From positions 75,717-139,716 of the forward strand of contig JAQUPP010000002.1 of the NCBI GenBank assembly GCA_028716665.1: a stretch of DNA of 64,000 bases. Direction: 5' to 3'. Position numbers and translations under genes: made by a program. Positions within the stretch are counted from its first letter, which is position 1, and every line of letters begins with the position of its first letter. Below are positions 3,969-54,023 of this stretch, piece after piece. The notes beneath the pieces were generated by a model. It was not told the origin of the DNA. It saw only the letters and a program-made list of their open reading frames with translations, and did not search any database. The DNA is from Patescibacteria group bacterium (lineage in GTDB: Bacteria > Patescibacteriota > Patescibacteriia > UBA2591 > JAQUPP01).

Positions 3969-3990
3969 TTTTTAAGTAGAGAGCTATCAG

Positions 3991-4075
3991 CCCCTCACAT
4001 GAAAATTATTGTCTTTTCCGAGTGAGTGCGGGCGACACAGGAGATTAATAATTTTGATAATTTTCATGTGAGGGG
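3991..4075. repeat. Perfect 19-bp inverted repeat (cccctcacatgaaaattat ... ataattttcatgtgagggg) with a 47-nt loop, right after the scpB stop codon
   Basis: Read directly from the sequence. Confidence 0.8.
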
Positions 4076-4089
4076 CCCTCATAGTTTAA
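4075..4089 (+). repeat. 15-bp direct duplicate of the tRNA-Arg 5' end (gccctcatagtttaa). The bona fide tRNA begins with the same 15-mer at 4198.
   Basis: Exact identity between 4075-4089 and 4198-4212. The intervening 108 bp carries two small hairpins (ctccgac/gtcggag and cccgac/gtcggg). Confidence 0.7.
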
Positions 4090-4197
4090 CTCCGACGCCT
4101 TAAAGGGTCGGAGTCCCGACCTCCAGAGCGTCGGGGCGGATAGAAAAATTTATTTTTTTTAGTAATTAGTCATTAGTAATTTGTAATTTGTTTTTCC

Positions 4198-4269
4198 GCC
4201 CTCATAGTTTAATGGATAGAACGTAGCCCTCCGAAGGCTGAAATGCAGGTTCGATTCCTGCTGAGGGCA
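4198..4269 (+). tRNA. tRNA-Arg (anticodon CCG)
   Basis: Manual cloverleaf. Acceptor gccctca/tgagggc, D-arm tagtttaatggatagaac, anticodon loop ctCCGaa, T-loop ttcgatt. Confidence 0.75.
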
Positions 4270-51203: not shown

Positions 51204-51315
51204 AAAAGCGGCTTTCTAAAAAAAGAAAGCCGCTTTTACATTGAATTTGACAAAAGTCGTAAATTTGTTATTATATTTATAGTTCTTATTAAACCTTAAA
51301 ATAAAAGGAGGGATA

Positions 51316-51786
51316 ATGATTATTCAATTAGGGCCATCAGCTATACCTTATAATAAGAGATTTCAATTTATGTGTTGTTGTTCTTATTATAAGCATCCGC
51401 ATGGTTGTCCAAATTTTGGTAAAAAATCTGATTGTCCGCCAAATTTGCCCTTGATTACCAAAGTTTTTGATTTCGGGCAAAAAATTTATTTAATTTACAC
51501 TGAATTTGATTTGGCCGCGCATGCCGAACGAATGCTGAAAATGCATCCGGATTGGAGTGAACATCAGATTTATTGCGTTCTCTATTGGCAGTCTAAAGCA
51601 AGGGTTTTTCAGCGGAAAGAAGAGGGGATGGCGATTAAACAACATGGTTTGGAATATATCTGTCGTTCTCCGGAAGCGCACGGTGTAAATATTACAGAAT
51701 TAATGAAAACTCAAGGAATCGTCTTGGAATGGCCGCCCAGAAAAATTACCCGTTTGGTTTCTTTAGGGGGATGGAAAATAAAATAA
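51316..51786 (+). CDS. hypothetical cysteine-rich protein (MCCCSYYKHPHGCPNFG...CPP N-terminus)
   Basis: Consensus promoter (51248) and strong SD. No known family recognised. Confidence 0.4.
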   Translation: MIIQLGPSAIPYNKRFQFMCCCSYYKHPHGCPNFGKKSDCPPNLPLITKVFDFGQKIYLIYTEFDLAAHAERMLKMHPDWSEHQIYCVLYWQSKARVFQRKEEGMAIKQHGLEYICRSPEAHGVNITELMKTQGIVLEWPPRKITRLVSLGGWKIK

Positions 51787-51849: not shown

Positions 51850-52290
51850 TTAAAATTTTAGACAAATTTTAAGAATCCCCACGCAAATTAACCCCATCTC
51901 TGCTAAAATTAAAGGAACTAATAACCATTTCTTTTTCTCAATCTCATCAGTAAGATTAAAATCAATAATGGAGGTCATATAGACGATGACAAGAATGAAA
52001 CCAATGGTGATGGCGACTGCTGCAATAATGGAAGCAGTGGTTTTGAAAAAAGTGAAGACGGAAAAGAAAGTGAAATCAATAGCAGTGGCAGCGAATGCAG
52101 TGAAGAATGAAACGAAGAAGAATTTGATATTAGTAACAAAAGCAAAATAGACAGAAGCAATAAGGGTAAAAACAAGAACAAGGGCGAGGGCGATGATCAC
52201 GTCTTTGGTTAAACTAAATGTTATTGCAAAAAACCCGATTGCAAGAACAATCGCAGACAATACAGATAGACCCAGAGTTAATTTTTTCAT
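51850..52290 (-). CDS. hypothetical integral membrane protein
   Basis: Four TM helices. Shares its promoter/5'UTR with the 53437 gene. Confidence 0.45.
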   Translation of the reverse strand: MKKLTLGLSVLSAIVLAIGFFAITFSLTKDVIIALALVLVFTLIASVYFAFVTNIKFFFVSFFTAFAATAIDFTFFSVFTFFKTTASIIAAVAITIGFILVIVYMTSIIDFNLTDEIEKKKWLLVPLILAEMGLICVGILKICLKF

Positions 52291-52444
52291 TTTTCCTCCT
52301 TTATAAAAATAACTATTTTAAATTATAGATAAAATTAGAAATTTGTCAACTCTTTCATAAAGAAATTTTTATCTTTCTTTAAAATTATGATTTAAGTGGA
52401 TAATTGTCCTTGACAAAAATTAAAGAACTGATATTATATTTATT

Positions 52445-52720
52445 AACCAGTATAGATTGCAGTCCTAAAAAGTTAGAAAGTCTTCTCGAGGTGGGCGTCT
52501 TGAGAAGACCTATACACCCGTATCCACGCTGTAGTACTAACTGGTCACGCCTGGTGGATTTTCCATGGAGAATCCATTGGAAACGGAACGTAAGGTTAAA
52601 GTGGGTTATTAAGGGTCCCATATCGCCTATGTCATCCTTGGGGTCGCATAGCTACGAGCTCTAAGGTTCTGACATTTTAAAGCGGGGTTGGTCAACGACC
52701 ACCCCGCCTCTTTTTTATTT
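52445..52720 (+). ncRNA. candidate structured ncRNA of unknown class (GC-rich, about 275 nt, with its own promoter and terminator)
   Basis: TTGACA(52410)-17-TATTAT promoter. Roughly 48% GC against a 33% background. Internal hairpins. Rho-independent terminator at 52682-52725. The only ORF uses TTG inside the -35 box and has atypical codons. Confidence 0.4.
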
Positions 52721-52734
52721 AAAAAATAGTTTTA

Positions 52735-52884
52735 GGCTTGTTTCTTTTGTGACGGATTCGCCCTATTTGTATTTTTTATTGTTTTTCTTGCCTCTAGCAT
52801 TAATCTTTTTGCTACCAATCTTTTTTGGGTTTTATGGGAATGTGATTTTTTGTGTCTATTTAATCCCGTGCTTCTTTTTGCCAT
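52735..52884 (-). CDS. small very basic protein (50 aa, MAKRSTGLNRHKKSHSHKTQKRL...). Possibly a ribosomal-type small protein.
   Basis: Open frame immediately downstream of the cupin gene and ending at the terminator hairpin. Not in the ORF track. Confidence 0.3.
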
Positions 52885-53307: not shown

Positions 53308-53436
53308 AAGTTTTAAAATTAATCAATTAAAATAAATTAATCTTTTATAACTATAAGTCTTCTATGTCATTTTGTCAATACTTTATCTTTTTAAAAAAAA
53401 TACCACCTCAACATTGTCGAAGTGGTATGATTTTAT

Positions 53437-53718
53437 TCAAGTGATAATTTTAAAAAGTTCTAATTTTACACAAGGATCAGTTAAGGATGGCCTATCATTA
53501 ACATTGGCAATAGTGTTGGGTGTAGTTTCTTTTTTTTCGAGCAAGGGACAATATTCTGGTCGACATGCAACTCTTTTTGTGTGATGTTTTGGTGCGTCAG
53601 GGTGCATACACAGAACTCCAAAATATGGCTCGCAATCTTTATAAAATGGACATTTTGTGTCGGGCCACGAGAAATCATCAGAATACCTAAATTCAGGTAT
53701 GTAGTCTTCTTTTTTCAT
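53437..53718 (-). CDS. hypothetical small cysteine-rich protein
   Basis: Strong SD. Promoter/5'UTR duplicated at 52291. Confidence 0.4.
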   Translation of the reverse strand: MKKEDYIPEFRYSDDFSWPDTKCPFYKDCEPYFGVLCMHPDAPKHHTKRVACRPEYCPLLEKKETTPNTIANVNDRPSLTDPCVKLELFKIIT

Positions 53719-53822
53719 TTTTCCTCCTTTATAAAAATAACTATTTAAAATTATAAATAAAATTAGAAATTTGTCAATACTTTATCTTTATCAAAAAAAC
53801 GAGTTAAAATAACTCGTTTTTT

Positions 53823-53897
53823 TGGGGTGGCTAACGGGATTCGAACCCGTGATAAGACTTCCACAGAGTCTTGTGTTACCACTACACTATAGCCACC
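53823..53897 (-). tRNA. tRNA-His (anticodon GTG, with G-1 and an encoded CCA)
   Basis: Manual cloverleaf. Anticodon loop ctGTGga. Extra 5' G. Confidence 0.75.
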
Positions 53898-53904
53898 ATG
53901 GGCT

Positions 53905-53978
53905 GGTACCCCCAAGAGGAATCGGACCTCTATGTTCAGCTTAGAAGGCTGACGTTCTATCCATTGAACTATGGGGGC
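53905..53978 (-). tRNA. tRNA-Arg (anticodon TCT, encoded CCA)
   Basis: Manual cloverleaf. Acceptor gccccca, anticodon loop ctTCTaa. Confidence 0.75.
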
Positions 53979-54023
53979 AATAAAAATTTAAAATTAAAAG
54001 ACAAATAGACTACGAGACATTTT

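Follow-up and report, generated by a model that had tools for sequence, protein, structure and literature searches.

A candidate stand-alone structured RNA gene on a strain-specific segment of a Patescibacteria genome

To our knowledge, very little has been learned about the regulatory and structural RNAs of the candidate phyla radiation (CPR), where standard annotation stops at tRNAs, rRNAs, and a handful of housekeeping RNAs. The closest described systems to the locus considered here are the stand-alone small RNAs (sRNAs) of other bacteria, such as the staphylococcal Rsa RNAs and the RNAIII-type transcripts. 6S RNA is likewise structured, some 200 nt long, and transcribed from an independent promoter, and in type I toxin–antitoxin systems such as tisB/istR-1 an RNA gene lies divergent from a membrane-protein gene in a variable region. 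GC-rich long intergenic regions in AT-rich genomes are well established as pointers to structured RNA genes (PMC8632094), and the TIGR arrays of TIGR-Tas, which are common in CPR genomes and easily missed by standard tools, are non-coding transcripts rich in hairpins (PMC12045711).

The DNA analyzed here (the window) is a 64,000-nt stretch of contig JAQUPP010000002.1 from a Patescibacteria genome, in which an initial annotation made from the sequence alone had marked one region as a candidate novel non-coding RNA (Table 1). Like the Rsa and RNAIII-type sRNAs, this element has its own σ70 promoter in the right orientation and its own Rho-independent terminator, has no protein-coding capacity, lies between unrelated genes, and is predicted to fold into a string of stable hairpins; unlike them, it has no homologues in our searches and no C-rich or other recognizable seed motif. 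The most economical reading, which we hold somewhat more firmly than its negation, is a lineage-specific, independently transcribed structured sRNA. The locus would then be a self-contained gene whose product is a stable and highly structured non-coding RNA, transcribed from a near-consensus promoter of its own to an intrinsic terminator of its own, with the RNA being made and presumably acting in trans, and the gene would be specific to this Patescibacteria lineage, residing on a 1.46-kb segment together with the genes for a DUF2284 protein and the membrane protein TM146. That the gene is real and expressed seems to us slightly the better bet, on grounds that lie in the sequence itself: a promoter and a terminator, no coding potential, an exceptional folding energy, GC enrichment, and absence from relatives.

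Table 1. Features of the candidate RNA gene and its surroundings, in positions of the 64,000-nt window
Feature	Position	Strand	Description
σ70-type promoter	52410..52437	+	-35 TTGACA 52410-52415, 16-nt spacer, -10 TATTAT 52432-52437
Predicted transcript	52445..52716	+	~272 nt, 47% GC, no credible ORF
Domain I, four-way junction	52446..52545	+	-35.3 kcal/mol, z -3.99
Hairpin II	52551..52580	+	13 bp including 4 G-U, loop CAUG, z -2.9
Single-stranded linker AAACGGAACGUA	52581..52592	+	12 nt, purine-rich, pairing probabilities mostly <0.3
Domain III	52593..52628	+	outer 4-bp helix, inner 5-bp helix, 11-nt loop UUAUUAAGGGU
Hairpin IV	52629..52675	+	6 + 11 bp with bulges, loop CAUAGCUA, -18.3 kcal/mol, z -4.05
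Intrinsic terminator	52682..52716	+	stem 52682-52707, then CUC, U6 at 52711-52716
Open frame, 86 aa, TTG start (ORF86)	52404..52664	+	judged spurious
Open frame, 78 aa	52385..52621	-	judged spurious; absent from the initial annotation
Strain-specific 1.46-kb segment	51259..52720		carries DUF2284, TM146, RNA; boundaries uncertain by ~15 nt
DUF2284-like Cys-rich protein	51316..51786	+	same 1.46-kb segment as the RNA
TM146, orphan 146-aa multi-pass membrane protein	51850..52290	-	divergent from the RNA

A search of the window against Rfam 15 (4227 families) at gathering thresholds returned four tRNAs only and nothing at the element, and with relaxed filters at E ≤ 10 over the 500 nt around it there were chance-level hairpin matches only, scoring 13 to 20 bits against gathering thresholds of 34 to 127 (RsaJ, 15 bits against 100; scaRNA, 20 against 127; U7; SSRC38). 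The weak RsaJ match is only a generic hairpin. ARAGORN found no tRNA or tmRNA at the element. The Rfam comparison, proposed in the initial annotation, matched no described family, and with the ARAGORN result it agrees with the earlier remark that no tmRNA, RNase P, or SRP hallmark motifs could be found. A highly divergent housekeeping RNA (6S, RNase P, SRP, or tmRNA) missed by the Rfam models in this phylum has in its favor that CPR RNAs are often atypical and that a 6S RNA or a reduced RNase P could have this size and a promoter of its own, but besides the empty searches the fold itself is at odds with it. The P1 helix of RNase P, the closing stem of 6S RNA, and the acceptor stem of tmRNA all require pairing of the ends, whereas here the two ends do not pair with each other, the first 100 nt folding back on themselves with a probability of at least 0.9. 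A fold that begins with a self-contained four-way junction and continues in separate hairpins cannot accommodate the end-to-end pairing of these three RNAs. The gene is moreover missing in sister species, which is unexpected for a housekeeping function, and we consider this explanation extremely improbable. Compared with 6S RNA specifically, the candidate lacks both a rod that runs from end to end around a central bubble and conservation in close relatives.

Several other known arrangements were compared with the locus and set aside. In the case of a type I toxin–antitoxin RNA, the neighboring TM146 has 146 rather than fewer than 60 residues, the RNA has no complementarity to the TM146 mRNA, and it has no small hydrophobic toxin ORF of its own. 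For a TIGR array, the loops of the candidate are 4 to 11 nt long, compared with the approximately 36-nt dual-spacer loops with box C/D-like motifs of the published arrays, and the locus has neither a Nop-domain Tas gene nearby nor internal repeated units (PMC12045711); the Pfam matches of the neighboring proteins are to cupin, DUF2284, SLT, and M48 only. A DGR template was rejected because no similar sequence occurs elsewhere in the window, and a CsrA sponge because the four GGA motifs counted by eye equal the number estimated from base composition, their clustering being due to a palindrome.

The initial annotation had placed a TTGACA-17-TATTAT promoter at 52410, and both boxes are found at these coordinates, though the spacer measures 16 nt rather than 17. 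The promoter is near-consensus, matching in 11 of 12 positions, and has an extended -10 element, with TG at 52429-52430 forming a TGn just 5′ of TATTAT; it predicts a transcription start at about 52444-52446. With a cutoff of at least 11 of 12 matches, the window contains 14 such promoters, compared with 1.6 ± 1.3 expected under a first-order Markov model, an approximately 9-fold excess. All except one are intergenic (13/14), and 12 lie 10 to 150 nt upstream of a gene on the same strand. Since strong matches are over-represented and gene-proximal, they are a good predictor of real promoters in this genome, and the one at 52410 is the sole member of the set without an ORF downstream, the next plus-strand gene being about 4 kb away. 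The near-consensus σ70 promoters of this genome often carry the extended -10 TG, which makes consensus-based prediction unusually effective here.

This arrangement also bears on a cis-acting role, in which the element would serve either as a 5′ leader or riboswitch whose expression platform is the terminator, or as an antisense partner, convergent with read-through transcripts of the orf93–cupin–50-aa ORF operon. A terminator at the end is indeed a feature of many riboswitch leaders, and the convergent operon ends just 16 nt past the U-run. The distance to the next plus-strand gene leaves a leader with nothing to control within 4 kb downstream, however, the genes on either side being encoded on the minus strand; no riboswitch family matched even at E ≤ 10, and any overlap with the convergent mRNA would be confined to the terminator. 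We therefore think a cis-acting element very unlikely.

Composition sets the transcribed region apart from its surroundings. The initial annotation had contrasted about 48% GC in the element with 33% in the genome, and the enrichment holds with somewhat different figures, 46.9% for 52444-52716 and 35.5% for the window average. The richest 200-nt stretch inside the element reaches 50% GC and so ranks among the highest 0.4% of 200-nt windows, and the remaining GC peaks of the window are in coding regions or, slightly lower, alongside a tRNA-Arg gene. With its 47 to 50% GC, the element resembles tRNA genes and is unmatched by any other equally long ORF-free stretch in the window. Like the candidates of the published GC-rich intergenic region pipeline, it occupies a long intergenic region whose GC content is unusually high for its AT-rich genome, and it differs from them in being a single sequence, whereas the published motifs have multiple representatives and covariation (PMC8632094).

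Two further GC-rich intergenic regions were seen in the window. Positions 3969-4197, upstream of tRNA-Arg(CCG), contain an inverted repeat, its arms (3991-4010 / 4058-4077) about 20 bp long, and, at 4075-4089, a 15-nt direct copy of the 5′ end of the tRNA gene (4198-4212) that is reminiscent of an integration scar; this region has no Rfam match. The second stretch, at 1900-2080, is ORF-poor, reaches 56% GC per 100 nt, and has a hairpin followed by a T-run near 1955-1995 and a GCCAGCTGGC palindrome, again with no Rfam match at E ≤ 1.

The distance from the predicted start at 52445 to the end of the U-run agrees with the roughly 270 nt that had initially been described behind the promoter, and the strong terminator that had been placed at 52682-52725 is likewise found. 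Its stem has 11 bp with one bulged U, and 52678-52716 folds to -18.3 kcal/mol (z -3.8). The plus strand carries the U6 run, compared with a weak UUUAAAAU tail on the opposite strand, so the terminator is oriented for plus-strand transcription, on the same strand as the promoter. It was overlooked by an automatic terminator scan, probably because of the bulged U and the 3-nt offset of the U-run.

The whole transcript has a predicted minimum free energy of -96.6 kcal/mol, compared with -75.1 ± 5.4 for dinucleotide shuffles (z -3.99), and none of the 200 shuffles folds as well. The predicted fold is well defined, with pair probabilities mostly at or above 0.9, and 13 of its 89 base pairs are G-U. 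In domain I, whose pair probabilities are mostly 0.8 to 0.9 or higher, a closing helix of 17 bp with two 1-nt bulges (52446-52463 / 52528-52545) leads to three hairpins at 52465-52476, 52480-52509 (12 bp, loop GUGGGC), and 52512-52523 (loop ACCC). The second of these contains the inverted repeat that the initial annotation had singled out as an internal stem, and it forms a perfect 12-bp hairpin (52480-52491 / 52498-52509). Hairpin II is a near-palindrome around CCATGG, and the linker that follows is the longest accessible single-stranded part of the transcript. Domain I, hairpin II, hairpin IV, and the terminator each fold significantly better than shuffles when taken singly, whereas domain III does not (z -1.4). 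The GGGU of the domain III loop (52613-52616) is complementary to the ACCC loop of domain I (52516-52519), suggesting a speculative kissing contact between the two.

The long, nearly perfect helices suggest that the element is evolutionarily young, as old functional RNAs typically have short, interrupted helices. The minus strand likewise folds well (z -3.6), the plus strand being the more stable by 10 kcal/mol, and the assignment of strand therefore relies mainly on the promoter and the terminator. Folding on both strands would also be expected if the element acted as DNA, with its inverted repeats serving as protein-binding or recombination sites, for example at the end of a mobile cassette or in an operator cluster. 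Hairpin II corresponds to a 22-bp near-palindrome and the 12-bp repeat has no mismatch, the strain-specific segment and the element share their right-hand end, and a XerC-type recombinase gene and tRNA genes lie 1 to 3 kb away. On the other hand, each of the 13 G-U pairs would turn into an A-C mismatch if the opposite strand were read; the boundaries of the segment show neither clear terminal inverted repeats nor a clean target duplication; no transposase, IS200/IS605, IS110, or integron gene is nearby; and no other copies of the element occur in the window or the searched loci. A DNA-level element is thus, in our estimation, a very improbable account of the locus.

The earlier view that the region has no credible ORF is borne out by several measures. 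The plus-strand frame reported at 52404..52664 does open with TTG, but this codon precedes the -35 hexamer by 6 nt instead of lying inside it, and is hence upstream of the predicted RNA 5′ end. The codon log-odds of ORF86 and of the 78-aa frame are negative in all frames, and their GC3 values are 0.47 and 0.39, respectively, compared with 0.32 ± 0.04 in real genes. Neither has a Pfam match; neither was called as a protein among approximately 15 billion predicted sequences, and the annotators of the record called no gene at the element. HMMER comparison of the ORF translation with 1.84 billion representative proteins gave no real homologue, the sole match being weak, to a 1326-aa protein that aligned in 19 stretches, probably as a repeat artifact. 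Within the transcript there are frames of 57 aa from GTG and of 15 aa from ATG (MENPLETERKVKVGY), neither of which is hydrophobic or has a convincing ribosome-binding site. Such open frames are what a small protein would need, whether ORF86, its 57-aa GTG-initiated version, or the 15-aa peptide, and a GGUGGA does lie 6 nt 5′ of the ATG of the last of these, but this putative ribosome-binding site is buried within the 13-bp hairpin. Taken with the position of the ORF86 start and the codon and homology results, this makes a small protein a highly unlikely product of the region.

Relatives of the element were sought at several levels of sensitivity. By nhmmer, the RNA gave identical copies or chance matches only in up to 149 loci (1.8 Mb), and HtpX-anchored synteny in GTDB genomes (80 loci, 1.35 Mb) showed no gene order shared beyond the species and was likewise empty by nhmmer. 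Two single-sequence covariance models, one of domain I and one of 52548-52680, found only themselves or chance matches in 1.47 Mb of Patescibacteria loci and the window, and unfiltered in six more loci; one weak match, in locus L152, is by eye apparently a tRNA gene. No RNA was found in the surroundings of DUF2284 homologues (63-71% identity) in five other contexts. In the JGI metagenomes, the ORF86 translation used as a six-pattern DNA probe gave nothing related among the matches listed (at least 600), and an exact 17-mer of the single-stranded linker gave 55 matches, about the number expected by chance on a rough estimate, none of which extends. Five exact or purine/pyrimidine-coded patterns had 0 matches in viral contigs, and blastn against phage and plasmid collections returned nothing.

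The loci and collections searched therefore hold no homologues with compensatory base changes, by which an Rfam-type family is recognized. Of the candidate novel non-coding RNA proposed initially, an independent, non-coding, structured plus-strand unit outside Rfam 15 stands, whereas homologous regions, on which the proposal was to be checked, are absent from the searched collections. A novel class of non-coding RNA would accordingly have to be argued from one sequence. That the element is the first member of a new class of structured RNA in Patescibacteria, with for example a protein-scaffolding or catalytic role, forming an accessory module with TM146 and having relatives that few-pattern scans missed, strikes us as a long shot.

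With respect to a mode of action, there is again a difference from the Rsa and RNAIII-type sRNAs, in that the RNA shows no complementarity reaching 12 nt with the mRNAs of the 64-kb window, including the divergent TM146 mRNA. A crude target prediction by duplex folding against the 73 translation-initiation regions of the window gave no outlier, and the values for the neighboring genes are below average except for DUF2284, which is approximately 1 SD better than the mean and no outlier either. Most nucleotides of the predicted fold are locked in long helices (17, 12, 13, and 6 + 11 bp), leaving the linker and a few loops exposed. The sequestration of the sequence in long helices and the lack of such a complement make a protein-binding or scaffold role likelier than that of a base-pairing regulator. 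Within the probability that we give to a real, expressed RNA gene, a protein-binding mode takes up only a minor part and is offered tentatively.

The sequence of the element is identical in two NCBI metagenome-assembled genome records (GCA_028713475.1 and GCA_028690995.1; loci L001 and L002). Three relatives (L084, L085, and L087), whose HtpX is 97% identical and whose flanking DNA has 85 to 90% nucleotide identity, align with the window to 52721 and resume at 51237, with the 1.46 kb between missing, and those relatives with 97 to 99% amino acid identity in HtpX whose DNA is on record have the syntenic site without the segment. In the three relatives the pair formed by the cupin gene and a 50-aa ORF abuts an SLT or VTT gene via a shared bidirectional terminator, and two further contigs with an identical 50-aa ORF likewise lead straight to VTT. 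The segment boundaries, as seen against L084 (9407-9431), L087, and L085, adjoin two terminators that both begin with AAAGCGG. The 50-aa ORF itself (52732-52884, minus strand; MAKRSTGLNRHKKSHSHK...), which is very basic and follows the cupin gene at a distance of 24 nt, probably encodes a genuine small protein; it is 94 to 96% identical in the sister species, where it has been called (MFA6146032.1), and is uncalled in the records with the window sequence.

The history of the segment can be approached through its two protein genes. Homologues of DUF2284 have at most 71% identity, and in the closest genome that bears one (L088) the gene adjoins XerC and is near HtpX; this arrangement, together with identities to the window proteins of 71% (DUF2284), 66% (XerC), and 64% (HtpX), is consistent with vertical descent. 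DUF2284 is thus probably ancestral to the neighborhood, with the sister species having lost the segment, although the segment may alternatively have arisen through rearrangement in this lineage, which we do not favor. Whether the segment was lost or gained, the RNA is dispensable, and it is not linked to DUF2284 in the other contexts searched. The TM146 gene is preceded by a perfect promoter (52349→52322) and an AGGAGG ribosome-binding site, and its product, recorded from NCBI and Logan sources on three contigs, matched only itself among 5.8 billion clusters.

Rearrangement in this neighborhood is also visible on the other side of the cupin gene. The interval between HtpX and cupin (53308-54023, compared with 6880-8821 in L084) varies among very close strains, those with 97 to 99% identical HtpX: in the window it contains tRNA-Arg(TCT), tRNA-His, and the Cys-rich orf93, and in relatives a methyltransferase with either a DUF4412-like gene or an 80-aa gene. 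The XerC-type recombinase gene adjoins HtpX. A 56-nt block with a perfect minus-strand TTGACA-16-TATAAT promoter is present twice, at 52300-52355 and 53728-53783, with 93% identity, one copy driving TM146 and the other orf93, and the matching copy in the sister species is directly upstream of cupin.

These observations count in favor of what is the only serious competitor to an RNA gene, that the element is a non-functional by-product of local rearrangement, with GC-rich foreign or scrambled DNA left between a promoter-like sequence and a terminator and its transcript having no role. The hot spot of strain variation, the duplicated promoter block, the absence of the 1.46-kb segment from relatives, the orphan status of the neighboring TM146, and the lack of any detected conservation of the element all agree with it. 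Leftover DNA is not, however, expected to fold 4 SD better than its shuffles, and in three separate sub-domains, nor to end in a U-run whose orientation matches the strand of an 11/12 extended -10 promoter. We regard a by-product as the less likely account, while giving it real weight. The considerations that speak against an RNA gene are that no homologue was found in the searched collections, that the segment is dispensable, that the helices look young, and that the minus strand also folds with a z of -3.6.

Taken at the level of class, the locus provides no evidence for a new kind of RNA and appears to fit a generic stand-alone bacterial sRNA gene confined to a single lineage. As one sequence from one population, its present value is as a target for metatranscriptome or RNA-seq data rather than as evidence for new biology. 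If the gene is real and expressed, it would supply a concrete and experimentally tractable sRNA from an uncultivated Patescibacteria lineage, and it would represent a strain-specific RNA gene that comes and goes together with an orphan membrane protein.
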